The notes: a model not told the origin generated them from the sequence alone. Positions 13,810-37,565 are shown, counted from the first letter of the stretch. The stretch: 64,000 nucleotides of DNA from Candidatus Levyibacteriota bacterium (GCA_016432345.1 CP066685.1:695740-759739), one strand, 5' to 3'. A program made the numbers and translations.

Positions 13810-13911
13810 ATGCCAAAAAATCAACAGTTGATTTTACTCGGAAAATTCTATACAATTCTAAAGGTGAAACAATTTTGCATTCTTACTGTCGTCCTTATTG
13901 ATCTCGCATAA
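13810..13911 (+). CDS. Putative ilv leader peptide (33 aa: MPKNQQLILLGKFYTILKVKQFCILTVVLIDLA), 14 of 33 residues Ile/Leu/Val
   Basis: Short ORF whose stop lies 2 nt before the first of the alternative stem-loop segments upstream of ilvB; the C-terminal third is ILTVVLIDL. Confidence 0.55.
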   Translation: MPKNQQLILLGKFYTILKVKQFCILTVVLIDLA

Positions 13912-13942
13912 ACGAGCGGGGCTGACTGTAGAAAAACATACT

Positions 13943-13966
13943 CCCGCTCATAAGCGGGATTTTTTT
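13943..13966 (+). terminator. Attenuator terminator: CCCGCT-cata-AGCGGG plus T7, abutting the ilvB ATG
   Basis: 6-bp GC-rich stem followed by TTTTTTT. The upstream segment GAGCGGGG (13914-13921) can pair with TCCCGCTC (13942-13949) as a mutually exclusive antiterminator. Confidence 0.55.
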
Positions 13967-15652
13967 ATGAAACAAATGTCGGGTGGGCATATGCTGATGG
14001 AAACTTTCTTAAAAGAAGGTGTGGATTTAATTTTTGGCTATCCAGGGGGCGCTATTATGCCTGTATATAATGCCCTGTATGATTACCGAGGAAAAATCCG
14101 CCATATCTTAGTCCGCCACGAGCAAGGCGCATCCCACGCCGCAGAAGGATATGCCCGCATAACTGGCAAACCAGGTGTTTGCTTGGCCACTTCTGGTCCC
14201 GGCGCCACCAATCTTATTACCGGCATTACCGATGCCTTAATGGACTCTGTGCCTTTAGTCTGTATTACAGGACAAGTTGCTTCCCATTTGGTTGGAACAG
14301 ATGCTTTTCAGGAAGCAGACATCGTTGGCATGACTACACCAATTACTAAATGGAATTACCAAATTACCAAAGCCTATGAAATCGTTAACGTCATTGCCAA
14401 AGCATTTAGTATTGCCAAATCAGGCAGACCTGGACCTGTTTTAATTGATATTACCAAAGACGCCCAAATTGATACAGGCAGTTTTTCCTACAAACCATAC
14501 CAGATTAAAAAAACATATCTCTCGCTTATTACACAAAAGAATAATATTAAAAAAGCAGCAGACCTTCTAAATAATGCCAAACGGCCTTATGTACTTATTG
14601 GTCATGGAGTGCAAATTTCATATGCCGAAAAAGAGCTTTTACAGTTTGTAGAAAAAGGCGGATTTCCGACTGCCGCAACCATCCACGGATTATCTTCTCT
14701 TCCCGCCAATCATCCTCTTTATGTTGGCATGCTTGGTATGCACGGCAATTACGGATCTAACATCCTAACAAACAAAGCAGATGTGATTATTGCCATCGGC
14801 ATGCGATTTGACGATAGGGTAACAGGAAGAATAAAAGACTATGCGCCTCAAGCCAAAATTGTTCATGTTGACATTGATCAAAGCGAGCACAATAAAATTA
14901 TAAAAACCGCTTTGGCAATAGTTGGCGACGCAAAAGAAGTTTTGCGAAAACTTATCCCCCTTATTAAGAAAAACTCTCACGCAGAGTGGATAAAAGAGTT
15001 TAGAAAATGTGATGCAATAGAATATGAAAAAGCCGTTCGCCCCGAAATGGCGCCAACAACCCCTCTTATCAAGATGGCAGAAGTTATCGCCATGCTGTCA
15101 AAAAAAACAAACGGCCAATCTATTATTGTTGCCGATGTGGGACAACATCAAATGATGGCAGCGCGTTATTATAAATTTCAAAAACCGAAAAGCTTTATCA
15201 CATCCGGCGGACTTGGCACTATGGGTTTTGCTTTACCGGCAAGTATTGGTGTCAAACTCGCCAGTCCAAAACGAAATGTAATTGCTGTTATTGGCGATGG
15301 CAGTTTTCAAATGACTATTCAAGAACTGGCAACAATTACCCAGGAAAAATTACCTGTTAAAATAATACTATTGAATAATAACTATTTAGGTATGGTGCGA
15401 CAATGGCAAGAGTTATTTTTTGACAGAAGGTATTCTTTTGTCGATTTAGATAATCCGGATTTTATCCAAGTGGCAAAAGGATTTCGCATTCCAGGCTTAA
15501 AAGTGGAAAAACGAAAAGATTTGGCAAAGGGAGTAGATAAAATGCTTTTAGCAAAAACACCATTTCTTTTGGAAGTGCATGTCGAAAAGGAAGGAAATGT
15601 TTTTCCCATGATGCCAACCGGCGCTTCGGTGGAGGAGATAAGACTGGAATAA
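13967..15652 (+). CDS. ilvB: Acetolactate synthase (acetohydroxy-acid synthase) large subunit
   Basis: ThDP enzyme: GVDLIFGYPGGAIMP N-terminal motif, GDGSFQM ThDP-binding motif; roughly 560 aa. The start could instead be the ATG at 13991 or 13997. Confidence 0.9.
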   Translation: MKQMSGGHMLMETFLKEGVDLIFGYPGGAIMPVYNALYDYRGKIRHILVRHEQGASHAAEGYARITGKPGVCLATSGPGATNLITGITDALMDSVPLVCITGQVASHLVGTDAFQEADIVGMTTPITKWNYQITKAYEIVNVIAKAFSIAKSGRPGPVLIDITKDAQIDTGSFSYKPYQIKKTYLSLITQKNNIKKAADLLNNAKRPYVLIGHGVQISYAEKELLQFVEKGGFPTAATIHGLSSLPANHPLYVGMLGMHGNYGSNILTNKADVIIAIGMRFDDRVTGRIKDYAPQAKIVHVDIDQSEHNKIIKTALAIVGDAKEVLRKLIPLIKKNSHAEWIKEFRKCDAIEYEKAVRPEMAPTTPLIKMAEVIAMLSKKTNGQSIIVADVGQHQMMAARYYKFQKPKSFITSGGLGTMGFALPASIGVKLASPKRNVIAVIGDGSFQMTIQELATITQEKLPVKIILLNNNYLGMVRQWQELFFDRRYSFVDLDNPDFIQVAKGFRIPGLKVEKRKDLAKGVDKMLLAKTPFLLEVHVEKEGNVFPMMPTGASVEEIRLE

Positions 15653-15653
15653 T

Positions 15654-15902
15654 ATGAACATTCAAACCTATACCATAACAGTTGAATCCGAAAATAAACC
15701 AGGAGTACTCTACCGTATCGCCGGTATTTTTGTGCGGCGAAAAATTAATGTTGAAAGTTTGTCTGTTGCCGAAACAAAAACTAAGGGCTTGTCAAAATTT
15801 TCAATTATTGCTAATATTACACCATACAACGCAAAAAGAGTTATTGAAAGCATTAAAAAAATTGTGGAAGTAACCGACGTTAATGCCGTAATCAAAAAAT
15901 GA
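15654..15902 (+). CDS. ilvN: Acetolactate synthase small (regulatory) subunit, minimal ACT-domain form
   Basis: 82 aa; ACT fold pattern ITVESENKPGVLYRIAGIFVRRKINVESL; positioned between ilvB and ilvC. Confidence 0.8.
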   Translation: MNIQTYTITVESENKPGVLYRIAGIFVRRKINVESLSVAETKTKGLSKFSIIANITPYNAKRVIESIKKIVEVTDVNAVIKK

Positions 15903-15946
15903 AACAAAATAATAATAACCTACAAAAACTCTAAACTGCCTCTTAT

Positions 15947-16993
15947 ATGAAAATAAATTTTGGCGGTGTCATCGAAGACGTGGTCACCCGAAAAGAATTT
16001 CCATTGACAAAAGCAAAGCAAGTGCTTAAAGACGAGGTAATTGCAGTAATTGGTTATGGCGTGCAAGGACCAGCCCAGGCATTAAACTTGCGGGATAACG
16101 GCTTTAGTGTGATTGTGGGACAACGAAAAGGTGGTCAGTCATTTGAAAAAGCCCAAAAAGACGGCTGGAAAGAGGGAAAAAACCTTTTCGATATAGAAGA
16201 AGCGGCAAAACGGGGAACCATTATTTGTTACCTTCTTTCCGATGCCGGGCAAATTCAATCCTGGCCGATTATTAAAAAACATCTAACACCTGGCAAAGCC
16301 TTATATTTTTCTCACGGCTTTGGTATAACTTACAAAAAACATACCAAGATTGTACCGCCAAAAAATGTTGATGTTATTTTGGTGGCCCCCAAAGGCTCGG
16401 GACGCACTGTCCGCAAACTCTTTACCGAAGGTAAAGGCATTAACAGCAGTTTTGCCATTTTCCAGGACGCCACAAAAAAAGCAAAAGAACGAATACTTGC
16501 AATAGGCATAGCCATAGGATCGGGTTATTTATTTGAAACAACGTTTGAAAAAGAGGTTTTTAGCGACCTAACAGGAGAAAGAGGCGTTTTAATGGGCGCC
16601 ATTGCCGGGGTTATGGAAGCGCAGTATAATTTGCTTCGCAAAAAGGGGCACACGCCATCGGAAGCATTTAACGAAACGGTCGAAGAAGCCACCCAAAGTC
16701 TTATTCCTTTAATTTCCGAAAACGGCATGGACTGGATGTTTGCCAATTGTTCAACCACGGCACAGCGCGGAGCGCTAGATTGGAAAGGAAAATTTAGAAA
16801 AGCTGTCGAACCGATATTTAATGATTTATACAAAAAAGTAAAATCAGGTTACGAAGCGCAGGTTACCATTAAAGCAAATAGCAAGAAAAATTATAAAGTT
16901 GGTTTGCAAAAAGAATTAGACACCATCAAAAATTCCGAAATGTGGAAAACAGGAACCACCGTCCGCTCCCTTCGCCCCGAACGACAAAAGTAA
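15947..16993 (+). CDS. ilvC: Ketol-acid reductoisomerase
   Basis: Rossmann motif GYGVQGPAQALNLRDNG; class I KARI length (348 aa). Confidence 0.9.
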   Translation: MKINFGGVIEDVVTRKEFPLTKAKQVLKDEVIAVIGYGVQGPAQALNLRDNGFSVIVGQRKGGQSFEKAQKDGWKEGKNLFDIEEAAKRGTIICYLLSDAGQIQSWPIIKKHLTPGKALYFSHGFGITYKKHTKIVPPKNVDVILVAPKGSGRTVRKLFTEGKGINSSFAIFQDATKKAKERILAIGIAIGSGYLFETTFEKEVFSDLTGERGVLMGAIAGVMEAQYNLLRKKGHTPSEAFNETVEEATQSLIPLISENGMDWMFANCSTTAQRGALDWKGKFRKAVEPIFNDLYKKVKSGYEAQVTIKANSKKNYKVGLQKELDTIKNSEMWKTGTTVRSLRPERQK

Positions 16994-16997: not shown

Positions 16998-17026
16998 TTG
17001 ACAAATAAGACACAACCTCTTATACT
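16998..17026 (+). promoter_or_regulatory. Sigma70-like promoter TTGACA-17 nt-TATACT; predicted start site falls at the leader ATG (leaderless leader mRNA)
   Basis: -35 TTGACA at 16998-17003, 17-nt spacer, -10 TATACT at 17021-17026, 7 nt before the ATG at 17034. Confidence 0.5.
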
Positions 17027-17033: not shown

Positions 17034-17090
17034 ATGAAGACAAATCAAAACATTCTCCTTACTATTGATCTCCTCCTTACGGAGATCTAA
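17034..17090 (+). CDS. Putative leu leader peptide (18 aa: MKTNQNILLTIDLLLTEI), 6 Leu and 3 Ile
   Basis: Short ORF ending 35 nt before the terminator hairpin; the Leu codons lie inside a self-complementary segment GATCTCC..GGAGATC. Confidence 0.6.
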   Translation: MKTNQNILLTIDLLLTEI

Positions 17091-17124
17091 TGGTTTGGGA
17101 GAAATAATTTTTAGATAATAACAA

Positions 17125-17150
17125 TCTCCCAAGCAAGGGAGATTTTTTTT
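17125..17150 (+). terminator. Attenuator terminator: TCTCCC-aagcaa-GGGAGA plus T8, abutting the leuA ATG
   Basis: Hairpin followed by TTTTTTTT. The upstream GGGAGA (17096-17101) and GGAGATC (17081-17087) can pair with ATCTCCC as alternatives; the 3' arm GGGAGA also serves as the Shine-Dalgarno for leuA. Confidence 0.6.
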
Positions 17151-18293
17151 ATGAAAAAACAGATTTTTATTTTTGACACAACTTTAAGGGATGGCGAGCA
17201 AGTACCCGGCTGTCAGTTAAATACTATTGAAAAAATTCAGGTGGCAAAAGCCTTAGACGAGCTTGGAATTGACATTATCGAAGCGGGCTTTCCAATCTCC
17301 AGCCCAGGAGATTTAAAATCTATTATTGAACTTTCCAAAGTCGTAACTCGGCCTACCATTTGCTCCTTATCCCGCGCTATTAAAGAAGATATTGATGCGG
17401 CCGCAGAAAGTCTAAAATTTGCCAAGCATAAACGAATACACACATTTATAAGCTCTTCCGATGTACAAATTAAATATCAGTTTAAATCCACCCGCGAAAA
17501 AATTATGCAGCAAGGCATTGAGGCTGTAAAATATGCCAAAAAGTTTACCCAGGATGTGGAATTTTCGGCCATGGACGCAGGCCGATCTGACAACGCATTT
17601 TTAGCAAAATTTATCGAAAATACAATCAAAGCCGGAGCCACTACTGTTAACATTCCCGACACTACAGGTTATTGTTTACCCGATGAGTTTGGTGAAAAAA
17701 TTAAATACTTATTCGAAAATGTCAAGGGAATTGATAAAGTAATTGTCAGCGTCCACTGCCATAACGACCTAGGACTAGCTACCGCTAATACCATTGCCGC
17801 TGTCCAAAATGGCGCGCGGCAAATAGAAGTAACTGTCAATGGTGTAGGCGAGAGGGCAGGCAACACCTCGCTTGAAGAAGCAGTGATGATCTTAAAAACA
17901 AGAGTTGATTTAAACGCTACAACCAGCATTAATACCAAATTAATTTGTCAAACATCTCAACTTGTTTCCAAACTTATGCACATGCCTGTTCAGCCAAACA
18001 AAGCCATCGTTGGCAAAAATGCCTTTGCCCACTCGTCAGGTATCCATCAAAACGGCGTCTTAAAAAACCGATTTACCTACGAAATTATTAACCCGGAAGA
18101 TGTTGGTGCTAAATCTTCGCTTGTTCTTACAGCCAGATCAGGACGATCAGCTTTAAGGTACCATTTAGAACGCTTGGGTTACAAAAAACTTTCCCAAACC
18201 CAAATTAATAGTACTTATCAAAAATTTTTAATGCTGGCAGACCAGAAAAAAGATTTAGGCGACAATGATTTAAAATATCTAATGAGTAATTAA
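17151..18293 (+). CDS. leuA: 2-isopropylmalate synthase, short form without the C-terminal regulatory domain (LeuA/CimA family)
   Basis: [10 protein letters not shown] motif and a HxH metal-site region in a DRE-TIM barrel; only 380 aa. Confidence 0.8.
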
Positions 18294-18295
18294 AT

Positions 18296-19978
18296 ATGAA
18301 AAGAAGCGATGCCTTAACTAAAGGAATTAAACGCGCGCCTGCCAGGGCAATGCTGCGGGCAGTTGGGTTTACAGATAAAGATTTTGGGAAACCAATTATA
18401 ACTGTGGCCTGTCCTTATACCAATGCCACCCCCTGCAATGCCCATATCCAGGATTTAGGCAACATAGCCCTGTCTGAAATAGAAAAAAAGGGTGGCAAAG
18501 GATTTATTTTTGGTACCCCTGTTGTCACAGATGGCGAAACAATGGGCATGGAAGGCATGAAGTATTCTCTTGTTAGCCGCGAACTTATTGCCGATTGCAT
18601 CGAAACCATGCACGAAGCGTATTCAGCCGATGCTGCTTTTACACTATCAGGATGCGACAAAACTATCCCAGCAGCTCTTATGCCACTGGCACGAAATAAC
18701 AATGTTGGACTAACACTTTATGGCGGAACAATTCGCCCAGGAAAATATAAAGGCAAAGATTTAACTATTGTTAGTACCTTTGAAGCAGTAGGAAGTTATA
18801 TTGCTGGAAAAATATCAGATGACGAACTTCATCAAATAGAGTGTCATTCTTGTCCAGGCAACGGCGCTTGCGGAGGCATGTATACGGCCAATACCATGGC
18901 TTCGGCGATTGAGGCTTTAGGAATGAGTATTCCGGGCAGCGCATCCCACCCGGCAGTTGATAAGCATAATAAAATTTCAGTAAAAAAAGTACAAGATATT
19001 AAAAAATCAATAACCGCACTCTTTATGCTTCTGGAAAAGAATATCCGAGCGCGGGATATTATAACTAAAAAGGCCTTTGAAAACGCTATCACAGTTGTTT
19101 TGGCATTGGGCGGTTCCACAAATGCAGTACTTCATCTTATTGCTCTTGCTCATGAAGCAGAAATAAATCTAACAATTGACGATTTTACTCGCATTGGCAA
19201 AAAAATTCCTTTAATTGGCAATTTTAAACCCTTTGGCGACTATGTAATGGAAGATTTAGATAATATTGGCGGCGTACCAATGGTAATGAAAATGCTCCTT
19301 GATGCAGGACATCTATATGGAGATTGCCTAACAGTCACTGGAAAAACCGTGTCCGAAAATCTTAAAAATGCCCCAAAACGGGAAACCAACCAAAACGTTA
19401 TTTATAGTCTCGAAAAACCATTATCTCCTCCACAACATCATATTATTATTTTAAGAGGCAACCTTGCGCCTGATGGCGCAGTGTTAAAACTAAGCGGAAA
19501 AGAAATGAAGTTTCATTCTGGTCCTGCCCGGGTTTTTAACTGCGAAGAAGAAGCTTTGGACGCAATTCTGCAGGGAAAAATAAAAAAAGGCGATTGTGTT
19601 GTAATTCGCTACGAGGGGCCAAAAGGCGGCCCGGGCATGCGGGAAATGCTTTCGCCATCCAGCGCTTTAATGGGCGCGGGACTTGGCAAAGATGTAGCTT
19701 TAATTACCGATGGACGTTTTTCTGGCGGCACACACGGCATCATGGTTGGCCACATTGCGCCAGAAGCAGAAAGAGGCGGACCAATTGCAACTATAAAAGA
19801 GGGTGATACAATAACAATTGATCTTGCAAAACGGACAGTTGATGTCGAACTTTCGAATGTCGAAATTAAAAAACGGCTGACAAAATGGAAAGCGCCAAAA
19901 GCGCAATACACCAGGGGCGTTTTGGCAAAGTACGCAAAATTAGTCTCAAGCGCAAGTAAAGGAGCGGTAACATCATGA
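18296..19978 (+). CDS. ilvD: Dihydroxy-acid dehydratase
   Basis: [17 protein letters not shown] Fe-S cluster motif; 560 aa. Confidence 0.9.
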
Positions 19979-20346
19979 AAATAATCAAAACCAAAAAAGC
20001 GCCAGCTGCGATCGGACCATACTCACAAGCAATTGTAGCAGGAGATTTTGTTTTCTGTTCTGGTCAGATTGGTATCAATCCAACAACAGGTAACCTGGTT
20101 GAAGGAATCGAAGACCAAACCAAACAAGTAATCACAAATCTTCAAGCAGTGCTCAAAGCCGCAAGGTTAGACCTTGCAAGTGTGGTAAAGACAACAGTAT
20201 TTCTCAAAAATATAAATGATTTTCCAAAGATGAACAATGTGTTTGCTTCTTTTTTCGACAAACATAAACCAACCCGCTCCACAATCGAAGCATCAAATCT
20301 CCCTAAAAATGCACTAGTCGAGATAGACGCGATAGCCCTCAAATGA
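19975..20346 (+). CDS. ridA: RidA (YjgF/TdcF) reactive enamine/imine deaminase
   Basis: 123 aa; [11 protein letters not shown]...FVSGQ-like signature; translationally coupled within the ilv-leu operon. Confidence 0.8.
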
Positions 20347-21719
20347 AACCAAAAACACTATTTGAAAAAATTTGGGATAGCCACGTGGTGTATCAAAAAA
20401 AGAACTATCCTGATGTTTTATATATCGACGCCCACTTAATCCACGAAGTTACCAGCCCCCAAGCCTTTGATGGTCTACGCAAAAGAAATCTCCCGGTTTT
20501 TCGCAGCATTCGCACCTGGGCCACAGCCGACCACAATGTCCCAACCAAAAATCAAGACAAACCAATCAAAGAAATACTCTCAAGAAAACAAGTTGAAATG
20601 CTTACCAAAAATTGCAAAGAGTTTGGTATTCGCCTCTATGGCCTTGGCCATCCATATCAAGGCATCGTCCATATTATTGGCCCGGAGCTTGGCATTACCA
20701 AACCTGGAATGACGATAGTTTGTGGTGATAGCCACACTTCCACTCACGGCGCGTTTGGCAATATTTCTTTTGGCATTGGTACAAGTGAAGTCGAACAGGT
20801 TTTAGCGACCCAAACTATCTTGCAATACAAACCCAAAACTATGCTGATAACTGTTGATGGAAAGTTAAAAAAAGGTGTTGTTGCAAAAGATATTATTCTT
20901 TACATTATTTCAAAAATATCAACAAGCGGCGCAACAGGCTACTTTGTTGAGTATGCCGGGTCAACCATTCAAAATCTTTCCATGGAAGCCAGAATGACTA
21001 TCTGCAACATGAGTATCGAAATAGGAGCCCGAGGTGGCCTAATTGCGCCAGATAAAACAACATTTGCCTACATGAAAAACCGAAAGTTTATGCCAAAAAA
21101 CAAAGAATGGGATAAAATAATCGCATATTGGAAAACCTTACCATCCGACAAAGACGCTATATACGACAAAGAGCTACATTTCGATGCAACAGACATAGAA
21201 CCAATGATTACCTATGGCACCAATCCCGGCATGGGAGTAAAAATCACAGAAAAAATCCCAAACGTTCCAACAGCCGAAAAAGCCCTTACCTATATGAATT
21301 TAAAAGCTGGAACTCCCATGATTGGATTAAAGATAGATTATGTTTTCTTGGGAAGCTGTACGAATTCCAGGATTGAAGACCTGCGTTTAGTTGCCAGTAT
21401 TGTTAAGGGGAAAAAGAAAGCAAAAAATGTTGATGTTTTTGTTATCCCAGGTTCCAAGCAAGTAGAAAAACAGGCCAAAAAAGAGGGGATAGATAAAACT
21501 CTTAAAAATGCTGGTTTCGAACTAAGGGAACCAGGATGTTCGGCCTGTTTGGGAATGAATGAAGACAAAATTCCTGCTGGAAAATACTGCATCTCAACAT
21601 CAAATCGCAACTTTGAAGGCCGCCAAGGCCCAGGTGCCAGAACTTTTTTAGCAAGTCCACTAACAGCCGCGGCGGCGGCAATTACAGGTAGAATTACAGA
21701 TGTCAGAACAATATTATGA
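20343..21719 (+). CDS. leuC: 3-isopropylmalate dehydratase large subunit
   Basis: Aconitase-family motifs ([21 protein letters not shown]); 458 aa. Confidence 0.9.
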
Positions 21720-22282
21720 AAACTATAATTTCAACCTGCGTACCATTACCAATAGAAAATATTGACACCGACCAAATTATTCCGGCCAGGTTTCTTAAAG
21801 CCACAACCCGAGAAGGTTTTGGTGAAAACTTATTTCGGGACTGGCGCGCAAAGGATAATTTTGTTCTTAACAATCCAGCATACTTTGGCAAAATTTTAGT
21901 TGCCGGGAAAAATTTTGGCTGCGGCTCCAGCCGCGAACACGCCGCCTGGGCTATAAAAGATTATGGCTTTAAAGCTGTAGTTTCCAGCTTTTTTGCGGAC
22001 ATATTTAAAAACAACGCACTCAACAACAACCTTCTTCCAGTCCAAATCAGCGAATCATTCCTGCAAAAACTTTTTAAAGCAATAGAAAAAGATCCAAAAA
22101 CAAAAGCAACTATTGACCTTGAAAAACAAATCATATCTTTTAACTCTCAAAAAGAAAAGTTTGATATTAACCCATATAAAAAAACGTGCTTAATATATGG
22201 ATATAACGATATAGAATACCTTTTGTCAATAAAAGACAAAATTAAAGAGTATGAGAAAAACAATAGCAATTTTGCCAGGTGA
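21716..22282 (+). CDS. leuD: 3-isopropylmalate dehydratase small subunit
   Basis: 188-aa aconitase swivel domain ([13 protein letters not shown]); overlaps leuC by 4 nt. Confidence 0.85.
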
Positions 22283-23497: not shown

Positions 23498-23571
23498 GGG
23501 CGCATAGCTCAGTTGGTTAGAGCGTTACATTGACATTGTAAAGGTCTCAGGTTCGAATCCTGATGCGCCCA
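23498..23571 (+). tRNA. tRNA-Val (anticodon GAC)
   Basis: GGGCGCA-TAGCTCAGTTGGTTAGAGC...TTACA-TTGACAT-TGTAA...GGTTCGAATCC...TGCGCCC-A. Confidence 0.85.
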
Positions 23572-23659
23572 CAAGTGATCTAATTGGATTATAAAAAGAC
23601 CCAGTTGACACCCACGAAATTACTTTTGCTAGACTACTTATCACTCTATTTATCACTCT

Positions 23660-27393: not shown

Positions 27394-27395
27394 TT

Positions 27396-27813: not shown

Positions 27814-27843
27814 AGCGGGGACTATTTGCGTGTTGCAAATAAG

Positions 27844-27866
27844 ATCCCCCAAAGGGGGATTTTTTG
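27844..27866 (+). terminator. Attenuator terminator: ATCCCCC-aaa-GGGGGAT plus TTTTT, 5 nt before the DAHP synthase ATG
   Basis: 7-bp stem (5 consecutive G-C pairs), 3-nt loop, U-run. The upstream GCGGGGA (27815-27821) can pair with TCCCCC as the antiterminator. Confidence 0.6.
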
Positions 27867-29694: not shown

Positions 29695-30125
29695 AAATTT
29701 TAGTTCTTAACGGGCCAAATCTTAATATCTTGGGAAAACGAAAAAAAGAGTTTTATGGAATATCTACACTTGATAATATCAATATCATTCTAAAAGACGC
29801 TGCAAAAAAATATGACTGCCAACTTTTATTTTTTCAATCAAATCATGAAGGAAGACTTATTGATTTTATTCAAAAACACGCAAAAAGCGCAGATGGCATA
29901 CTGATAAATCCTGGAGCGCTGACTCATTATGGGTATTCACTTCACGATGCACTAGTTGATACAAAATTACCAATTGTCGAAGTGCACCTTTCTGACATCA
30001 CAAAACGGGAAGACTTTAGAAAAATAGATGTATTTGATGGAATTGTAATTGAAAGAGTAATGGGAAAAAAAGAAAAAAGTTACGAAGAAGGACTGGAAAA
30101 ACTAATTAAACATATTAAAAAATGA
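29691..30125 (+). CDS. aroQ: 3-dehydroquinate dehydratase, type II
   Basis: ILVLNGPNLNxLGxR...HEGxLID type II DHQase signature; 144 aa. Confidence 0.85.
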   Translation: MKILVLNGPNLNILGKRKKEFYGISTLDNINIILKDAAKKYDCQLLFFQSNHEGRLIDFIQKHAKSADGILINPGALTHYGYSLHDALVDTKLPIVEVHLSDITKREDFRKIDVFDGIVIERVMGKKEKSYEEGLEKLIKHIKK

Positions 30126-31279
30126 ATATTAAGATCTATCCATCTAAAATATCAGGAGTCATAAATGCGCCGCCATCCAAAAGTATAACACACCGAGCTA
30201 TTATTGCCGCTGCTTTAGCGCATGGAACCTCTGTAATAAAAAACGTGCTTTTTTCCGATGACACAAAATACACAATTCATGCGCTACAACAACTAGGTGT
30301 AGAAATAGAACAAAACAAAACAACACTAACTATTTATGGAACTGGTGGAAAACTTATTGCTCCCAAAAAACCGCTATATGTAGGCAACTCCGGGTCAACA
30401 CTTCGCATGATCACTGCTATTGCGTCATTAGCAAAAGGTGAAACAATAATTACAGGAGAAAAACGACTGCAAAAACGCCCCATCCAAGATCTTCTTGACG
30501 CGTTAAAACAAATCAATACAAGTATAATTACAATTGATGGATCGAAAAGCTCACAGTATATTACCGCACTGCTGCTTATTGCTCCATTTGCAAAAAACAC
30601 TTTGGAAATTATTATTAAAGGGGATCTTCGTTCAAAACCATATGTTCTATTAACTCTTGATGTAATGAAATCATTCGGCGTTTCTTTCCACCTTAGAGGT
30701 GGAAACCTATTGACACCTTTGGAAAAAAACCAAAAATATAAAGGTAGAAAATATACGGTTGAAGGAGATTTTTCCTCTGCGGCATACTTTTTTGCAGCGG
30801 CCGCAATAACAAAAGGCAAAATAACAGTAAAAAATCTTAATAAGAATTCTGCGCAGGGAGACAAGAATTTTCTTAACCTCCTGCAAAAAATAGGAAGCAC
30901 TGTTGATATGAATGATTATCCTGATATTGTTCAAACACTGGCTGTTGTTGCTGCCTTTACCAAAGGAAAAACCACTATTACAAATATAAATCATTTAAAA
31001 GACAAAGAAACAAATCGTATTTCTGCGACTGCAAAGGAGCTTAGGAAAATGGGAATTGCAGTAAAAGCAACAAATGACAAACTCATTATACAGGGGGGAA
31101 TACCAAAAGGAGCAGTAATTAACACATATAACGATCACAGAATGGCCATGAGTTTTGCTGTTGCTGGTCTTGCCGCAATGGGTGAAACGATTATTCAAAA
31201 TGCAGAAGTAGTTAACAAATCGTATCCCAATTTTTGGAAAGATTTGCAAAATCTTGGAGCAAAAATAGAAGTTATATGA
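30122..31279 (+). CDS. aroA: 3-phosphoshikimate 1-carboxyvinyltransferase (EPSP synthase)
   Basis: PPSKSITHRAIIAAALA N-terminal motif, VEGDFSSAAYFFAAAAI; 385 aa. Confidence 0.85.
   Translation: MNIKIYPSKISGVINAPPSKSITHRAIIAAALAHGTSVIKNVLFSDDTKYTIHALQQLGVEIEQNKTTLTIYGTGGKLIAPKKPLYVGNSGSTLRMITAIASLAKGETIITGEKRLQKRPIQDLLDALKQINTSIITIDGSKSSQYITALLLIAPFAKNTLEIIIKGDLRSKPYVLLTLDVMKSFGVSFHLRGGNLLTPLEKNQKYKGRKYTVEGDFSSAAYFFAAAAITKGKITVKNLNKNSAQGDKNFLNLLQKIGSTVDMNDYPDIVQTLAVVAAFTKGKTTITNINHLKDKETNRISATAKELRKMGIAVKATNDKLIIQGGIPKGAVINTYNDHRMAMSFAVAGLAAMGETIIQNAEVVNKSYPNFWKDLQNLGAKIEVI
30684..30722 (+). repeat. REP-like hairpin copy inside the aroA coding sequence (TTCCACCTTAGAGGTGGAA plus CTATTGACACCTT)
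   Basis: A 37-39-nt near-identical match to the left flank of the Y1 transposase gene at 39614-39653; encodes FHLRGGNLLTPLE in frame. Confidence 0.7.
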
Positions 31280-31779
31280 ACATTGTTTTAATTGGTATGA
31301 GGGGAGCTGGTAAAACAACTGTGGCAAAACTGTTGTCTAAAAAACTGCAAAAAGAAGTTTTGGAAACAGATGACTTTATTGCAAAAAAGGCAGGTATGAC
31401 TATTGCCGAAATTGTTTTAATGAAGGGTTGGGATTATTTTCGCGATGTTGAAACGGAAGTAATTGCCGATATTTCAAAAAAAGATAATGTAATTATTTCC
31501 TGCGGCGGGGGCGTTGTAATAAGACCAAAAAATATAGATTTGTTAAAACAAAATGGGAAAATTTTTTGGCTGCAAGTTAGTGTTGCAACGCTTCTTAACA
31601 GAATCGGACACGACCAAAACCGACCATCACTCACTGGTAAGCCGCAAAAAGAGGATATGGAAGAAACGCTAAAAAAACGATATACACTATATAAAAACGC
31701 AAGCAATGTTAGTATTGATACAGAAAAACTAACTAAAAAAGAAGTGGCGCAAAAAATAATTGATTCATTATGGAAATAA
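31276..31779 (+). CDS. aroK: Shikimate kinase
   Basis: IVLIGMRGAGKTT P-loop; 167 aa; start chosen at the ATG overlapping the aroA stop (ATGA). Confidence 0.85.
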   Translation: MNIVLIGMRGAGKTTVAKLLSKKLQKEVLETDDFIAKKAGMTIAEIVLMKGWDYFRDVETEVIADISKKDNVIISCGGGVVIRPKNIDLLKQNGKIFWLQVSVATLLNRIGHDQNRPSLTGKPQKEDMEETLKKRYTLYKNASNVSIDTEKLTKKEVAQKIIDSLWK

Positions 31780-32546
31780 ATTCACAAACACAACTTTGCT
31801 GCATTATCGGTAATCCAGTAGAACATTCTCTTTCGCCAACAATTCATAATGCAGCTTATGATAATTTAGGACTAAATTTTGTTTACCTGTCATTTCGGGT
31901 AACTGATGTAAAAAATGCCATTGCGGGAATTAGAGCCCTCGGAATAAAAGGAATAAGTATTACAATTCCTCATAAAATCACTGTTATGCCGCTACTTGAT
32001 GAAATTGATAAATCAGCAAAAGAAATTGGCGCAGTGAATACTATTATAAACAACAACGGAAAACTAAAAGGTTTTAATACCGATTATAAAGGCGCCATAC
32101 GAGCTCTTGAAGAAAAAACAACGCTTACCGGAAAACACGTTGTATTACTCGGTAAAGGTGGAGCAGGAAAAGCAATTGCCTTTGGGCTTAAAGAAAAAAA
32201 TGCATCAGTCTTTATCGTTAACAGAGCAATAGAAAAGACAAAAGTTTTAGCAGAAATTAAGAAAGCAGATATACTAATCAATGCCACGCCTATTGGCATG
32301 CATCCAAAAACAGAAGAATCGTTAATACCCAAAAAATATCTTCATAAAAACCTGATTGTTTTCGATATTGTCTATAACCCAAAAGAAACAAAATTACTAA
32401 AATATGCAAAAGAAGCTGGATGTGCAATTGTCTATGGTTATAAAATGCTCTTATACCAGGCAGTATCGCAGTTTGAGCTTTTTACCAATCACAAAGCGCC
32501 AGTTGCTATAATGGAGGAGGCTTTATTATTATGCTTAAATTCTTAA
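31770..32546 (+). CDS. aroE: Shikimate dehydrogenase
   Basis: GNPVEHSLSPTIHNAAY substrate-binding motif; GKGGAGKA Rossmann motif. Confidence 0.85.
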   Translation: MEINSQTQLCCIIGNPVEHSLSPTIHNAAYDNLGLNFVYLSFRVTDVKNAIAGIRALGIKGISITIPHKITVMPLLDEIDKSAKEIGAVNTIINNNGKLKGFNTDYKGAIRALEEKTTLTGKHVVLLGKGGAGKAIAFGLKEKNASVFIVNRAIEKTKVLAEIKKADILINATPIGMHPKTEESLIPKKYLHKNLIVFDIVYNPKETKLLKYAKEAGCAIVYGYKMLLYQAVSQFELFTNHKAPVAIMEEALLLCLNS

Positions 32547-33658
32547 CAGCAGGCGAATCACACGGTAAAGCAGAAATTGCTATTTTAGAAGGCATGCCGG
32601 CCGGTCTTTTCATTTCCCATGAAGACATAAATCGCGAATTAAAAAAGCGCATGCATGACTACGGACGAGGAGGACGGGCAGAAATAGAAACTGACGAGGC
32701 GAAAATTCTCTCCGGAGTTAGACAGGGAAAAACCATCGGCAGCCCAATTGCCTTGCTTGTAGAAAACAAAGACCAGGCTAAATGGGAAGATAAAATAACC
32801 AAACCCCGTCCAGGACACGCAGATTTAGCGGGAAGTTTAAAATACGGCTTTGATGATGTCCGAAATGTTTTGGAAAGAGCATCGGCTCGAGAAACAGTGA
32901 TGCGGGTGGCAGTTGGCGCTGTTTGTAAAAAGTTTTTATCTGAATTTGGCATAGAAATTGCCAGTCATACAATTCGTATCGGCAAAATTGCCATTACAAA
33001 AACTGATTATTCATTTGATGAAATAAAAGATATTTATATAAAAGATCCCGATGTCCATTGTATTGACAAAAACACTCAAGAAAAAATGAAACAAGAAATA
33101 ACAAATGCTCGTCTTAACAAAGATACCTTGGGAGGAATTGTAGAAATTATTGCTCATAATGTTCCAGTAGGTCTTGGCAGTTATGTTCATTTTGACAAAA
33201 GACTTGATGCCAACATTGCACAAGCTTTAATGAGTGTACCATCGGTAAAAGCTGTAGAAATCGGCAATGGCATCGAAGCATCTGGCAAAACAGGAAAAGA
33301 AATACAAGATGCAATTACTGTTTCTAATAATTCTATACAACGAAAAACCAATAATATGGGAGGCATTGAAGGCGGCATGAGCAATGGAGAAGATATTGTC
33401 TGTCGAGTCTACCATAAACCTCTTTCGACAATTTATGATCCTCTCCCAACTGTTGATATAAAAACAAAAGAAAAAACTGTTGCAGCTATTGAAAGATCGG
33501 ATGTATGCGTGGCGCCTCGCGCTGGGGTTGTATCAGAAAGCATGATTGCATATACACTTGCTCAAGCAATGTTAGAAAAATTTGGCGGAGATTCATTACA
33601 AGAAACAAAAAGAAATTTTGACGCATACATTAAATTACTGCCGATTAAACGCGTATGA
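32531..33658 (+). CDS. aroC: Chorismate synthase
   Basis: FLTAGESHG N-terminus, GGRxSARETxxRVAxGA motif; 375 aa. Confidence 0.9.
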   Translation: MLKFLTAGESHGKAEIAILEGMPAGLFISHEDINRELKKRMHDYGRGGRAEIETDEAKILSGVRQGKTIGSPIALLVENKDQAKWEDKITKPRPGHADLAGSLKYGFDDVRNVLERASARETVMRVAVGAVCKKFLSEFGIEIASHTIRIGKIAITKTDYSFDEIKDIYIKDPDVHCIDKNTQEKMKQEITNARLNKDTLGGIVEIIAHNVPVGLGSYVHFDKRLDANIAQALMSVPSVKAVEIGNGIEASGKTGKEIQDAITVSNNSIQRKTNNMGGIEGGMSNGEDIVCRVYHKPLSTIYDPLPTVDIKTKEKTVAAIERSDVCVAPRAGVVSESMIAYTLAQAMLEKFGGDSLQETKRNFDAYIKLLPIKRV

Positions 33659-35328
33659 AAAATAATCAACCATTAATTGGCATTATTGGCGGAACTGGAA
33701 AAATGGGGCAGTGGTTCACCCAGTTTTTCCAGGATCATGAGCTATTGGTACTCACTGCTTCGAGAAAAACAGCTCTTTCGATAGAATCTCTTGCCAAAAA
33801 AGCAAACATCATTATAGTTTCTGTTCCCATCTCCGAAACGCAAAAAACACTTAAAAAAATTATTCCGCATATATCAAAAGACAAACTTCTAACAGACTTA
33901 ACATCATTCAAAGTAATGCCCATGGAAACAATGAAAGAGGCAGAATCTGGAACGTTAGGCATGCATCCGCTTTTTGGACCAAGCGCAACGCTTGATCAAA
34001 AATTAAAAATAGTTTTTTGCAAACAAAAAAATAATTCTCATGTTACTTTTTTAGAAGATCTTTTTACAAAATCAGGCATTGAAATAATTGAAATATCTGC
34101 CGAAGAACACGACTACCAAATGGCTTACATTCAAGCATTCACCAATGCTATAAATTTACTATATGCCAAAATTATTTTTGAGCATAAAAACGTGCTAGAA
34201 AACAAACTGCATACACCTATTTTTACTTTACAATCACTTATTATGGGTAGAGTTTTAAACCAGGATATAAAATTAACCAGTGATTTACAATTATATAATC
34301 CCTATTTTTTGCCCGTACTAGAAGCATTTGTTACTCAGGCAAAAAAGTTAGAAACTATTATTGAAAAAGAAGATGAAAAAGCATTTGTCGAAATGTTTTC
34401 CGAAGAACAAGCGTTGACAAAAAATTTTGCCAGTTTTTCCACATTACAAACAAATAAGCTGCTGCTGCAAGTCAACAATGTTACAGTAACAATTCCATCT
34501 AAAATTTCGGAAATTGATTTGTCAAAAAATGCAGATGTTGCATATTTAGGACCGGAAGGAACATTTTCTCATCTGGCAGTTTTAACTGCTATGCCTCATA
34601 ATACAAAAGTTTCCTACGAAACTATATATGATATTTTTAACGCCGTACAAAATGGAGATATTAAATTAGGCATTATCCCCGCAGAAAACTCAATAGAGGG
34701 AACAGTTAAAGAAACATTAGATTATCTTATTGATTTTTCTTTAATGGTTATTGGTTCTTTCGAACTTCCTATTCATCAACAGTTTCTCTCGAAAGAAAAA
34801 AATTTAACAAATATTCACACTGTCGCATCACATCCTCAAGCCCTTGCCCAATGCAGAAACTGGATTAAAAAGCATGTGCCAAACGCCAAAACAATTTCAA
34901 CATCAAGCACTACAAACGCCTTACAAAATCCCCAAAAAGGCTACGCCTACATTGCGTCAAAACTTGCTGCAAAGCAATACCATATGTCTATCCTTGTAAA
35001 AGACATAGAAGATAACCCAAACAACAGGACAAAATTCTATATTGTAGCCAGAAAAAAAATAAAAATTGATGGCATAAGCAATAACAAAACATTGATCTTT
35101 GCTACAGTGCATAATAGAGTAGGAATCCTTCGCGACATTCTAAACGTTTTTGCAACCCATCAAATAAATTTAACAAAATTAGAATCAAGACCAAGCGGCG
35201 GCAAACATGTTTGGGACTATCACTTTTTTATTGAATTTGAAAAGAATCAAAAAAATGTTTCCCTCTCACAACTGTTTAGCGAACTTAAGCCATACTGCCC
35301 AATCATTCGAACCTTGGGAAAAACATGA
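33655..35328 (+). CDS. Fused prephenate dehydrogenase (TyrA) and prephenate dehydratase with ACT domain (PheA)
   Basis: N-terminal roughly 280 aa: NAD Rossmann IGIIGGTGKMGQWF and GMHPLFGP (TyrA). C-terminal half: AYLGPEGTFSH, GIIPAENSIEG, TKLESRP and a terminal ACT region (PDT-ACT). One uninterrupted 557-aa ORF. Confidence 0.75.
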   Translation: MKNNQPLIGIIGGTGKMGQWFTQFFQDHELLVLTASRKTALSIESLAKKANIIIVSVPISETQKTLKKIIPHISKDKLLTDLTSFKVMPMETMKEAESGTLGMHPLFGPSATLDQKLKIVFCKQKNNSHVTFLEDLFTKSGIEIIEISAEEHDYQMAYIQAFTNAINLLYAKIIFEHKNVLENKLHTPIFTLQSLIMGRVLNQDIKLTSDLQLYNPYFLPVLEAFVTQAKKLETIIEKEDEKAFVEMFSEEQALTKNFASFSTLQTNKLLLQVNNVTVTIPSKISEIDLSKNADVAYLGPEGTFSHLAVLTAMPHNTKVSYETIYDIFNAVQNGDIKLGIIPAENSIEGTVKETLDYLIDFSLMVIGSFELPIHQQFLSKEKNLTNIHTVASHPQALAQCRNWIKKHVPNAKTISTSSTTNALQNPQKGYAYIASKLAAKQYHMSILVKDIEDNPNNRTKFYIVARKKIKIDGISNNKTLIFATVHNRVGILRDILNVFATHQINLTKLESRPSGGKHVWDYHFFIEFEKNQKNVSLSQLFSELKPYCPIIRTLGKT

Positions 35329-35340
35329 TATACTAAATAT

Positions 35341-35601
35341 ATGGATCAACTAGAAATATTACGAAAAAATATAGACCAGATTGACAACGATATTTTAACT
35401 CTTTTAGTAAAACGGTTTTCTCTTGTTAAAAAAATTGGAGTGTATAAAAAAAATAATAATATGTTGATTGTAAATAAAAATAGGGAAGAAGAAAAAATAA
35501 ATGCTTTAATCAAAACTGGCAATATGTTTAACATGTCAAAAGAATTTATCCAAAATATCTGGCAAACAATTTTTGCAGAAAGTTATAAACTGGAAATATA
35601 A
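35341..35601 (+). CDS. Chorismate mutase, AroQ class, monofunctional
   Basis: 86 aa; LRKNIDQIDNDILTLLVKRFSL helix-1 signature of AroQ-type chorismate mutases. Confidence 0.75.
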   Translation: MDQLEILRKNIDQIDNDILTLLVKRFSLVKKIGVYKKNNNMLIVNKNREEEKINALIKTGNMFNMSKEFIQNIWQTIFAESYKLEI

Positions 35602-35607
35602 TATCTT

Positions 35608-36525
35608 ATGCCAACAGTATATTTTAACGGCAAATTTATTCCCGAAAACCAAGCTTTAGTACCAATCAATACTCATGCTTTGCATTATGGCACTGGCTGT
35701 TTTGAAGGAATAAGAGCTTACTATTCGGAAAAAGAAAATGCCTTATTAGTATTTCGCATGCAGGATCATTACAAAAGATTTTTGCAATCGTGTAAAATCT
35801 TAATGACAACCCCTGAAGAATCGGTTGATAAATTATGTGAGATAACAACTAAACTTATTCAAAAAAACTTTGAAAAAATTGATTTATACATTCGACCGCT
35901 GGCTTACAAAGCCGATCGGGCTGTCGGGAATTTTAATTTAAAATTCCTTAAAAACGGCTTGGCAATTTATACAATTGCCTTTGGCCGCTACCTTAACACC
36001 GACAAAGGTATTAGAGCAAACGTTAGCTCCTGGCGAAGAATTCCTGACAATGTTATTCCTGCTAGAGCCAAAATTACCGGCGGTTATGTAAATAGTTCTT
36101 TGGCCAAAACAGAAAGTTTGTTAGCCGGATATGAAGAAGCGCTATTCTTAGATAATCAAGGACACGTCATGGAAGGCACTGGAGAAAATATTTTTATTGT
36201 TAGAGACGGCATTGTTATAACCCCGCCAGAATCAGACGATATTTTAATTGGCATCACAAGACTTACCGTGATGACTCTTTTAAAAAATGATTTGGGAATC
36301 ACAGTTATTGAAAGGAGTATTGATAGAGCAGAGCTTTATCAAACCGACGAAGTTTTTGTGGTAGGAACTGCCGCAGAAGTTACGCCAGTTGTAGAAATCG
36401 ATGGAAGAATAATTAGCAACGGTAAAATTGGCAAAATAACAGCAGATGTAAAAGATTTATATTTTAAACTTGTTCATGGAGATTATCCAAAATATAGAAA
36501 ATTTATCACAAAAGTAGAGCTATAA
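35608..36525 (+). CDS. ilvE: Fold-type IV PLP aminotransferase (branched-chain amino-acid aminotransferase IlvE-like)
   Basis: HALHYGTGCFEGIRAY motif typical of BCAT; 305 aa. Lies at the end of the aromatic cluster, so it may serve both pathways. Confidence 0.65.
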   Translation: MPTVYFNGKFIPENQALVPINTHALHYGTGCFEGIRAYYSEKENALLVFRMQDHYKRFLQSCKILMTTPEESVDKLCEITTKLIQKNFEKIDLYIRPLAYKADRAVGNFNLKFLKNGLAIYTIAFGRYLNTDKGIRANVSSWRRIPDNVIPARAKITGGYVNSSLAKTESLLAGYEEALFLDNQGHVMEGTGENIFIVRDGIVITPPESDDILIGITRLTVMTLLKNDLGITVIERSIDRAELYQTDEVFVVGTAAEVTPVVEIDGRIISNGKIGKITADVKDLYFKLVHGDYPKYRKFITKVEL

Positions 36526-36527
36526 AC

Positions 36528-37565
36528 ATGGAAGAGCAACTAATCGATATTAAAAATGCCGCGCTTTCTTTAATTCTTGATGCAAAAGATAAGGCAGAAC
36601 TCGAGGAAATAAAATTACAATTTTTAGGAAGAAACGGCACATTTACTTTAATATTAAAAGACCTTCCAAAAATCCCAAAAGAAAAAAGGCCTGCCGTTGG
36701 ACAACTAGCTAATAGTGTCAAAATAACGATCTCTGACGCAATTGATAGACAAAACTTAAAACTAAAAACCGAAAAACCAAAACAGCAAAAAGATGTTCTT
36801 GATGTTACCATGCCTGGCCACAAACCGCCGCTTGGACACCATCATCTTATTACCCAAGCAATTTCAGAGATTACTGCTATATTTGAAAAAATTGGTTTTA
36901 CCCGCGTCAAATACCCAGAGGTCGAATGGGATTGGTACGCCTTTGAAGGATTGAATTTTCCTAAAGATCACCCAGCCCGAGACGACTGGGAAACATTTTT
37001 TATCAAACAAAAACCAGATCCTAAAAAAGGCCCGGTTATTTTAACCCCTCATACTTCTTCCGGGCAGATTAGAGAAATGGAACGGGTAAAAACTCCTCCA
37101 ATTAGAATGCTTAACATCGCCAAATGCTACCGAAGACAATCTGACGTTTCTCATTCACCAATGTTTCACCAATTTGAAGGATTAGTAGTAGACAAAAATA
37201 TTTCAATCACACATCTAAAAGGAACGCTTGATTATTTTGTTAAATCATACTTTGGCGCCAACAGAAAATCTCGAATTAGACCATACCATTTTCAGTTTAC
37301 CGAACCGTCATTTGAAGTTGATGTTTCCTGTGGCATTTGTCTTGGCCGAGGATGTAAACTTTGTAAAGCAGGATGGTTGGAAATGGGAGGAGCAGGCATG
37401 GTCCATCCAAATGTTCTAAAATTTGGGGGAATTAATTCTAAAGAGTACTCTGGATTTGCTTTTGGTTGGGGAGTCGAACGAGTGTTGATGATGAAAGAAG
37501 GAATAGAGATAGACGATCTGCGATTATTATATTCCAATAATTTAGATTTCTTAGAGCAATTCTAG
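36528..37565 (+). CDS. pheS: Phenylalanine--tRNA ligase alpha subunit
   Basis: Class II motifs (FPKDHPARD, CYRRQSDVSHSPMFHQFEGL, GWLEMGGAGMVHP); 345 aa. Confidence 0.9.
   Translation: MEEQLIDIKNAALSLILDAKDKAELEEIKLQFLGRNGTFTLILKDLPKIPKEKRPAVGQLANSVKITISDAIDRQNLKLKTEKPKQQKDVLDVTMPGHKPPLGHHHLITQAISEITAIFEKIGFTRVKYPEVEWDWYAFEGLNFPKDHPARDDWETFFIKQKPDPKKGPVILTPHTSSGQIREMERVKTPPIRMLNIAKCYRRQSDVSHSPMFHQFEGLVVDKNISITHLKGTLDYFVKSYFGANRKSRIRPYHFQFTEPSFEVDVSCGICLGRGCKLCKAGWLEMGGAGMVHPNVLKFGGINSKEYSGFAFGWGVERVLMMKEGIEIDDLRLLYSNNLDFLEQF

Follow-up and report, generated by a model that had tools for sequence, protein, structure and literature searches.

Four predicted leader-peptide attenuators ahead of amino acid operons in a Microgenomates bacterium

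Introduction

Four spacers in a 64,000-nucleotide stretch of the metagenome-assembled genome of an uncultured Candidatus Levyibacteriota bacterium (GCA_016432345.1, CP066685.1:695740-759739; the whole stretch is called the window here, and its guanine-plus-cytosine (GC) content is about 37%) each carry a short open reading frame (ORF) and a hairpin directly ahead of genes for amino acid synthesis: ilvBNC, leuA-ilvD-ridA-leuCDB, ilvA and an aromatic (aro) cluster. The question raised by this locus is whether these spacers are amino-acid-specific attenuators, as an original prediction from the same DNA had claimed, and what each of them would sense. The host lineage is, by its sequence, the Microgenomates branch within the Candidate Phyla Radiation (CPR, or Patescibacteria), and the closest relatives of its IlvA are Levybacteria and Daviesbacteria proteins (70-88% identity). 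Descriptions of the CPR generally portray its members as auxotrophic episymbionts whose regulation is minimal; this host apparently makes its own branched-chain and aromatic amino acids, which is unusual for the group.

The region very probably holds four classical ribosome-mediated (leader-peptide) transcription attenuators. ORFs rich in the cognate amino acids precede operons confirmed with NCBIfam, their codons match the downstream pathway, the hairpins and alternative pairings around them form switch folds behind promoter motifs, and these features are conserved; the central claim of the original prediction was upheld on these grounds. Each unit would consist of a sigma-70-like promoter, an ORF of 14-18 codons that begins 7-10 nucleotides (nt) past the -10 box and contains a cluster of codons for the end product, a stop codon 0-3 nt before segment 2, and a terminator (the 3:4 hairpin) reaching up to, or almost to, the first structural gene.

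With cognate aminoacyl-tRNAs in good supply, the ribosome would reach the stop codon and cover segment 2, the terminator would form and transcription would stop. When they are scarce, the ribosome would stall on the regulatory codons and cover segment 1, leaving segment 2 to pair with the 5' arm of the terminator (the antiterminator), and RNA polymerase would enter the operon. Supplies of Ile, Leu and Val would thereby be sensed for ilvBNC, Leu for leuA-ilvD-ridA-leuCDB, Ile and Thr for ilvA and, by read-through, for thrS-infC-rpmI-rplT, and Phe, Trp and Tyr for the shikimate-tyrA/pheA operon.

Structure of the four leader elements

The leader ORFs were read directly from the four spacer sequences, and all four elements lie on the + strand. 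The ilvB element begins with a promoter match (TTGATT, 17 nt, TACAAT; 13828-13856) whose -10 box ends 7 nt before a GTG start codon at 13864. The ORF (13864-13911) encodes (M)KQFCILTVVLIDLA*, with its Ile, Leu and Val codons at 13879-13905. Segments 1 (13882-13894) and 2 (13913-13931) make up the anti-antiterminator hairpin (13882-13931), and the segment 2 core, CGAGCGGGG (13913-13921), begins 1 nt past the stop codon. Segment 3 and the terminator (TCCCGCT-CATA-AGCGGGA followed by T7; 13941-13966) extend to the gene itself, the hairpin with its U-run occupying 13942-13966 and ending 0 nt from the ilvB ATG at 13967; CTCCCGCTC (13941-13949) is the alternative partner of the segment 2 core. The antiterminator folds at -14.6 kcal/mol (z -3.3) with seven of seven arm bases paired. 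This leader had originally been started at an in-frame upstream ATG (13810), but the longer ORF was rejected: the orthologues, whose starts coincide with GTG 13864, do not conserve this ATG, and the long ORF contains the promoter.

The leu element has the promoter TTGACA, 17 nt, TATACT (16998-17026), which is the top match (11 of 12) of a promoter scan that covered 20 kb, and its -10 box ends 7 nt before the ATG at 17034. The ORF, MKTNQNILLTIDLLLTEI* (17034-17090), has five Leu codons, each CTC or CTT. Segment 1 (TTCTCC at 17053-17058, with an inner hairpin at 17067-17087) and segment 2 (TTTGGGAGAA, 17094-17103) span 17053-17103, and segment 2 begins 3 nt past the stop codon. Segment 3 and the terminator, AATCTCCC-AAGCAA-GGGAGATT with T8 (17123-17150), end 0 nt from the leuA ATG at 17151. 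The alternative partner of segment 2 is AATCTCCCAA, and in this antiterminator (z -3.8) six of six arm bases are paired.

Ahead of ilvA, the promoter TTGACA, 17 nt, TAGTAT (with a TG; 24004-24032) again ends 7 nt before the start codon, an ATG at 24040. The Thr/Ile leader ORF, MNKNQIITITTIPS* (24040-24084), has seven Ile or Thr residues in a row. Its segment 1 (24060-24081) is followed by segment 2 (GGGAGGTGTG..., 24085-24101), which begins directly (0 nt) past the stop codon, so that the two span 24060-24101. The terminator, ACCTCCC-ATAAA-GGGAGGT with T6 (24109-24132), lies 9 nt from the ilvA ATG at 24142, and the alternative pairing joins GGGAGGT to ACCTCCC (antiterminator z -3.9, six of six arm bases paired).

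The aro element has the promoter TTGACT, 17 nt, TAAGAT (with a TG; 27721-27749), which overlaps the end of rplT and ends 10 nt before the ATG at 27760. The aromatic leader ORF, MKQFNNRKITFWFYFTS* (27760-27813), contains four Phe, one Trp and one Tyr. Segment 2 (GGGGAC-TATTTGC...GCAAATA; 27817-27841) is followed by the terminator, GATCCCCC-AAA-GGGGGAT(C) with T6 (27843-27865), 6 nt from the DAHP synthase ATG at 27872. The alternative pairing joins GGGGA...TATTTGC to GCAAATA...TCCCC, and the antiterminator folds at -15.6 kcal/mol (z -3.1).

A shared architecture is present throughout: in all four elements segment 2 follows the stop codon at a distance of 0-3 nt and can pair with bases of the ORF, the regulatory codons overlap segment 1, and the terminator adjoins the structural gene. 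The 1:2 hairpin is clear for the ilvB, leu and Thr/Ile elements.

Terminators, alternative folds and chance

A strict definition was applied in the search for terminators (a stem of at least 6 bp with at least 50% GC, and at least five T among the 6 nt that follow). Four sites on the + strand of the whole window qualify, and they are exactly the four leader hairpins, while first-order Markov simulations gave an expectation of 1.0 +/- 1.0 per strand. The folding energies of the terminator hairpins range from -9.1 to -11.0 kcal/mol. The antiterminators were examined by folding each element between its stop codon and the loop of its terminator, with shuffled upstream sequence for comparison; all four gave -14.0 to -15.6 kcal/mol and z scores of -3.1 to -3.9, with 5-7 arm bases paired.

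Amino acid bias on its own was rejected as a test of significance, because biased microORFs are common. Among 1286 mechanically called short ORFs, the thresholds were reached by 24 for Ile/Leu/Val, 23 for Phe/Trp/Tyr and 80 for Leu, each amounting to 1.8-6% of the set; only one reached the Ile/Thr threshold, the run of MNKNQIITITTIPS being unique. The argument that chance was an unlikely source of the four leaders consequently holds only for the conjunction of features: intergenic position, promoter, biased ORF, terminator, alternative pairing and cognate operon coincide at these four sites alone in the window. One other combination of microORF, hairpin and ORF was found there (- strand, near 63612-63624), with a 5-bp stem and an unbiased peptide, and no comparable biased microORF with a terminator precedes an unrelated gene within the 64 kb.

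It could be argued that the hairpins are ordinary terminators of the upstream units and that the short ORFs are chance frames in AT-rich spacers. The frequency of biased microORFs would allow this, as would the lack of any other terminator between ilvC and the leu leader or between rplT and the aro leader; the hairpins probably end the upstream transcripts too. Yet they have strong promoter matches on their upstream side and the next operon immediately behind them, their antiterminator pairings are far better than those of shuffled controls, and the composition of each leader follows the content of the genes behind it. As set out below, the ORFs, their frames, stop positions and cognate residues are also kept in 10 related contigs while the surrounding bases vary. 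Simple termination with fortuitous ORFs is therefore barely credible beside leader-peptide attenuation.

A double role for the terminators had been proposed for ilvB and ilvA, where they were thought to close the preceding unit as well. Such a role is best matched by the leu and aro elements: the leu promoter begins 5 nt past ilvC, the aro promoter begins within the last part of rplT, and neither has another terminator ahead of it. For ilvB the role is doubtful, since the upstream ORF is followed by a hairpin of its own at 13701-13718. This strong hairpin (CCACCC-ACTAAG-GGGTGG, preceded by a run of A7) would read as a perfect terminator on the - strand, yet that strand has no gene to the right of it; on the + strand it comes after a small ORF's stop codon and lacks a U-run.

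Conservation in related contigs

Loci were fetched around homologues of IlvA, LeuA and DAHP synthase; L numbers are labels of fetched loci, including those of the out-group discussed below. The resulting leader set comprises 25 instances, including those of the window, with 4-8 per family. In 10 related Microgenomates contigs (Levybacteria, Daviesbacteria and Roizmanbacteria-like) there are orthologous leaders that share the regulatory residues and the alternative pairings; a lack of conservation in sister genomes, which would have refuted the original prediction, is thus not what the comparison showed. Regulatory residues, frames and stop positions are kept across these relatives, while other positions and the hairpin sequences vary. 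Antiterminator z scores range from -2.2 to -5.0 in 19 of 23 scorable instances; in the remaining four, segment 2 lies inside the ORF and thus outside the region definition used for folding.

Close orthologues of the ilvB leader read MKQLCILTVVLLDLA (L112, ATG start), (M)KKFAVFAVVLIDLAT (L113, GTG) and (M)KKFAILIIVLLDLA (L114, GTG), and the promoter hexamers, the spacer and the 7-nt gap are the same in all three. More distant ilvB leaders (L088, L091, L096 and L097) read MNRRFAQLIIVLITH, MNRLFSQIIVVLITH, MKNKVAQLIVLLITR and MNRPFNFIIVLLITR... The leu leader has the orthologues MNKNKNILRTQDLLLEI, MKKNQNILRTSNLLILEA and MQRTDLLLTTNLLIQKV; its promoter is conserved, with a gap to the start codon of 7 nt in L112, 8 nt in L113 and 10 nt in L114. 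Segments 2 and 3 of the leu element are invariant across the four sequences, and all 24 predicted pairs are kept in at least three of them (20 in all four), two with compensatory changes.

Orthologues of the Thr/Ile leader are MNKNQIIAITTTLR (L111), MNKKLIIAITTTLL (L115), MKKNQIITITTIPL (L116) and MKISAIICTTTTISS (L107), and the 7-nt gap between promoter and start is conserved in the first three. The aromatic leader corresponds to (M)KKKDLIFYFFYFTS, MKQSNNNTIVFWFYFTS and MNKAQNWFYFFFASLIGR, and to MNISQVNYFWFTYFT... and MNIMCQANNYWFYFTF... in contigs of Daviesbacteria and Roizmanbacteria type; its promoter (TTGACT, 17 nt and the -10 box) is conserved in L115, L116, L107, L117 and L118. GTG-start leaders are themselves conserved, for ilvB in three of the four close relatives and for aro in L115.

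Consensus folds recovered the terminator in all four families and the 1:2 hairpin in three (not ilvB), with compensatory changes present; in the Thr/Ile fold these affect 8 of 17 pairs. The terminators of orthologues differ (ACCTCCC as against CCCCGC), and segment 2 changes alongside (GGGAGG as against GGGG).

An exact look-up of the IlvA of the window gave no match, and a metagenome scan with IlvA returned mainly distant loci of 55-69% identity. Among these, no leader was found before ilvA in L083, L088 or L107, because ilvA there lies inside a larger operon, and no thrS leader was found in L083 or L086. L119 has a single Ile/Leu/Val leader ahead of its entire ilvE-to-leuB operon and, at 17858-17960, an Ile leader (MTKRILTNDIIIAISR) ahead of genes for aspartate kinase (AK) and an AK-homoserine dehydrogenase.

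Search for other sensors

The alternative hairpins do not by themselves reveal what sets them, and a real switch could in principle answer to an RNA-binding protein, to uncharged tRNA in the manner of a T-box, or to a metabolite, with the ORFs incidental. In Firmicutes the ilv-leu, aro and thrS genes are usually under T-box control. However, an Rfam scan of the region at gathering thresholds found no leader, T-box or riboswitch family, and the T-box covariance model had no match in the region even at E values up to 10. With permissive settings the only hits were two to Phe_leader (RF01859), which scored 27.4 bits at 24046-24136 and 24.8 bits at 17037-17150, well short of the family's threshold of 55; the comparison with Rfam leader models that had been suggested placed none of the four elements in a family. 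The elements, at about 100 nt, are also too short for a T-box, and what the families share and conserve is a series of cognate codons together with a stop codon adjoining segment 2. A sensor other than the translating ribosome is thus very improbable, and ribosome-mediated attenuation is preferred.

Promoters and leader initiation

The promoters were called as consensus matches. All four leader promoters have a 17-nt spacer, and the gap between the -10 box and the start codon is 7, 7, 7 and 10 nt. Among the 25 leaders, relatives included, 11 have a gap of exactly 7 nt and 24 have one no longer than 12 nt. No Shine-Dalgarno (SD) site is present in the four leaders, and the gap leaves no room for one. 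Start codons are ATG in three of the four and GTG for ilvB, as in L113 and L114 (ATG in L112). The four leaders are probably translated from leaderless or almost leaderless RNA, the start sites being placed by the promoter motifs.

The absence of SD sites is not specific to the leaders, because 21 of 26 genes of the region have no SD-like motif, and a full GGAGG occurs in only two. Boxes resembling TATAAT stand 5-7 nt before the ATG of several genes that are first in their unit: thrS (25397-25433), ilvE (35590-35610), the chorismate mutase gene (35320-35343) and a divergent pair at 1363(-) and 1436(+). Counted more broadly, a -10-like box lies 5-6 nt before the ATG in 8 of 71 genes that are first in their unit and in 1 of 62 inner genes, which suggests that leaderless mRNAs may be common in the lineage. 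Leaderless or near-leaderless initiation looks like a lineage habit, not a special adaptation of the leaders. The original prediction had treated leaderless leaders as an unusual variant of attenuation; the conserved spacing between -10 box and start codon agrees with the leaderless part of this claim, and the precedent in Corynebacterium and the SD-poor genome tell against the unusual part.

A variant in which the attenuators are real and the leader ORFs are read from short-leadered mRNAs (a 5' untranslated region of 5-20 nt, with SD-independent initiation) must be weighed here. Many orthologues have gaps of 9-12 nt, and the aro leader of L116 has one of 22 nt; in a genome mostly without SD sites, SD-independent initiation on A/U-rich leaders must be common; and the promoter calls are matches to a consensus. 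Set against this are the exact 7-nt gap of 11 among the 25 leaders, to which three of the window's four belong, the enrichment of -10-like boxes at first-in-unit genes, and the ilvB leader of C. diphtheriae (MNIIRLVVITTRRLP), whose transcription start site was mapped at the start codon (PMC5784534). Short 5' leaders are on balance less likely than not, and leaderless or nearly leaderless initiation is preferred.

The Thr/Ile leader and thrS

The leader before ilvA had been described as an Ile/Thr leader for that gene. Its composition bears this out, but its orthologues include leaders of thrS and of thrC-thrS, and it probably serves thrS as well. In L116 (981-1069) the nearly identical peptide MKKNQIITITTIPL stands ahead of an unknown gene, thrC and a full-length thrS, and in L107 (18046-18144) the related leader MKISAIICTTTTISS stands directly ahead of thrS. 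Thr codons occur in the leader where thrS or thrC follows (the window, L111, L115, L116 and L107), whereas leaders with only ilvA downstream have Ile and no Thr, such as MIKKCKMINIAIIVPL in L110 and ...MIIASP in L081. Because of this distribution, the Thr codons most plausibly serve thrS, and the Thr/Ile switch is best described as a thr-type leader that would drive both ilvA and thrS.

The strict scan found no terminator between ilvA and thrS-infC-rpmI-rplT in the window, and ilvA and thrS would be co-transcribed. In addition, a separate -10 box for thrS (TATAGT, 25420-25425) lies 7 nt upstream of the gene's ATG. To our knowledge, no leader-peptide attenuator of thrS has been described. A wider proposal, which is tentative and has somewhat less in its favor than against it, is that the Thr/Ile leader was re-wired in evolution from thrS or thrC-thrS, as in relatives, to ilvA-thrS-infC-rpmI-rplT, and that leaderless, partly GUG-initiated attenuators are the main amino-acid-sensing system of Levybacteria and their Microgenomates relatives. 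If this re-wiring took place, a tRNA synthetase, IF3 and two ribosomal proteins would be under amino acid attenuation in a CPR bacterium.

Points weighed against attenuation

Several observations do not favor four attenuators of the classical type. The 1:2 pairing of the aro element is weak (4 bp), and two hairpins may make up the switch of this unit. The ilvB leader would depend on GUG initiation, possibly on leaderless RNA, and GUG initiation on leaderless RNA is inefficient in E. coli. The composition of the Leu leader is ordinary when taken alone, as 80 of the 1286 short ORFs reach four Leu in seven residues. All four elements score below the gathering threshold of every Rfam leader family (Leu, Thr, Trp, His and Phe). 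Finally, induction of the Thr-consuming enzyme IlvA on Thr starvation looks maladaptive unless thrS is the real beneficiary; with thrS as the beneficiary of the Thr codons, this paradox would be removed.

Gene content of the region

Gene identities were checked with NCBIfam, and the operons described here lie on the + strand. The putatively regulated ilvB-ilvN-ilvC operon (13967-16993) contains ilvB (13967-15652), ilvN (15654-15902) and ilvC (15947-16993). IlvN is an 82-aa ACT domain alone, shorter than in relatives (aa, amino acids). The second putatively regulated operon, leuA-ilvD-ridA-leuC-leuD-leuB (17151-23306), includes leuA (17151-18293), ridA (19975-20346) and leuC (20343-21719). LeuA, at 380 aa, is also short: it is missing the leucine feedback domain (LeuA_dimer) at its C terminus, which most relatives have in a protein of 496 aa.

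The position of ridA between ilvD and leuC had been called unusual. The same position is found in L107, L112, L113, L114 and L119, and ridA adjoins ilvA in many other relatives. RidA is linked to the chemistry of IlvA and IlvE, and its placement is typical of the lineage and consistent with that link.

The gene for tRNA-Val(GAC) lies directly after leuB (23498-23572), as it does in L119 (about 16425-16500); a branched-chain tRNA gene thus stands behind the leu operon in both, a conserved placement. LeuC of the window is 63-74% identical to LeuC of Bacteroidota (L001-L076) and 75-77% identical to that of other CPR members (L086 and L107), a roughly equal distance. These identities hint at horizontal exchange of ilv-leu genes between Bacteroidota and Microgenomates. 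A hypothetical protein of about 110 aa, coiled-coil-like and conserved in several Levybacteria, is encoded 5' of the Thr/Ile leader or, in L083, of thrS (window 23660-23998; L083 11753-11986; L107 17692-18012; L111 276-605); it matched no NCBIfam family.

The ilvA-thrS-infC-rpmI-rplT genes (24142-27743) begin with ilvA (24142-25392) and thrS (25433-26671). ThrS has 412 aa and is without the N-terminal tRNA_SAD/editing region found in L107, L111 and L116 (576-580 aa). Loss of allosteric or editing domains from LeuA, IlvN and ThrS may have shifted control onto the attenuators.

The putatively regulated aromatic operon runs from the DAHP synthase gene (27872-28630) through aroB, aroQ, aroA, aroK, aroE and aroC to a tyrA/pheA fusion (27872-35328 in all). 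The fusion (33655-35328) encodes one 557-aa protein with prephenate dehydrogenase and prephenate dehydratase. Downstream of it NCBIfam identified chorismate mutase, ilvE, pheS and pheT; pheS-pheT stand immediately 3' of ilvE (35608-39609), an unusual neighbourhood. The gap at 35328-35608 was considered as a fifth leader and rejected, as the chorismate mutase gene occupies it.

Comparison with known systems

The thrL, leuL, ivbL/ilvL, pheL, pheM and trpL leaders of enterobacteria follow the same 1:2/2:3/3:4 logic, with an ORF of cognate codons and a Rho-independent terminator before the first gene. Thr and Ile codons are mixed in E. coli thrL, and pheM is a case of attenuation of a synthetase operon, pheST (in part PMC11802643). 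The Levybacteria peptides differ in being shorter (14-18 aa), apparently leaderless and without SD sites, and they are not members of the Rfam leader models in sequence or structure. One aromatic leader joins Phe, Trp and Tyr codons and would control the whole common pathway, and the Thr/Ile leader would drive ilvA and thrS instead of thrABC.

A likeness in initiation is found in Corynebacterium, which has attenuators for ilvB, leu and trp as well as aroR before aroF, and where leader peptide genes, such as that of ilvB in C. diphtheriae, are transcribed as leaderless RNAs. A three-hairpin model has been given for its ilvBNC (PMC11857589), and C. glutamicum aroR is a Phe-Tyr-Phe leader ahead of aroF, which encodes DAHP synthase (Neshat et al. 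2014, cited in PMC11802643). The two groups belong to different phyla (Actinobacteria and CPR/Microgenomates), with no detectable sequence homology. The Levybacteria aro leader also includes Trp and sits after rplT or trpA, and GTG-start leaders are conserved in Levybacteria.

When genome contigs were scanned with LeuC, all loci retrieved were from Bacteroidota and Chloroflexi (59-74% identity; LeuC of Bacteroidota is 72-74% identical to that of the window) and none from a CPR genome, and these loci were used as an out-group. In these Bacteroidota and Chloroflexota loci, attenuators of the same architecture are abundant and stand before ilvE, ilvD or leuA, aro and his genes, for example MLKNSIYNKITLVSTVIIVVVIIIISSAGGGV, MNSIFIHTLLLNIIILLRKK (leuA), MIAKRFYFYYYFFQ... 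and MFNKSTLHHHFHLCFQAR. The Bacteroidota leaders are longer (20-35 aa) with long Ile/Val runs, whereas those of Levybacteria are short and stand behind promoters of TTGACA/TATAAT type. Within the out-group, aromatic leaders occur in Cyclobacteriaceae (MIAKRFYFYYYFFQ...) and Anaerolinea (MKNVKSLRFFAYYFYYG...), a His leader in Bacteroidales (MFNKSTLHHHFHLCFQAR) and a Leu leader before leuA (MNSIFIHTLLLNIIILLRKK), beside many leaders with Ile/Val runs before ilvE or ilvD (L025 15626-15747; L039 15537-15663; L077 15768-15903; L075 14781-14893; L073 8151-8279). Comparative attenuator predictions for Bacteroidetes and Chlorobi were reportedly made by Vitreschak et al. in 2004.

The T-box does the same job of sensing tRNA charging and has the same terminator/antiterminator output; it has no leader ORF and binds uncharged tRNA directly through a structured leader of about 200 nt.

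No published report of leader-peptide attenuation in CPR/Patescibacteria was found in full-text literature searches. Complete branched-chain and aromatic pathways wired to sensors of tRNA charging would argue that these pathways are used and tuned and are not relics. The elements also represent four (six with relatives) new conserved leader families missed by current Rfam models, and from DNA alone they give access to the promoter architecture, and the probably leaderless translation, of an uncultured phylum. Two features are mildly novel: the conservation of leaders that start with GTG and are probably leaderless, and the re-use of a thr-type leader for ilvA and a synthetase/ribosomal-protein operon. 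Beside the systems above, the mechanism is that of the textbook, and the gain is one of phylogenetic reach and regulatory wiring and not of a new principle.

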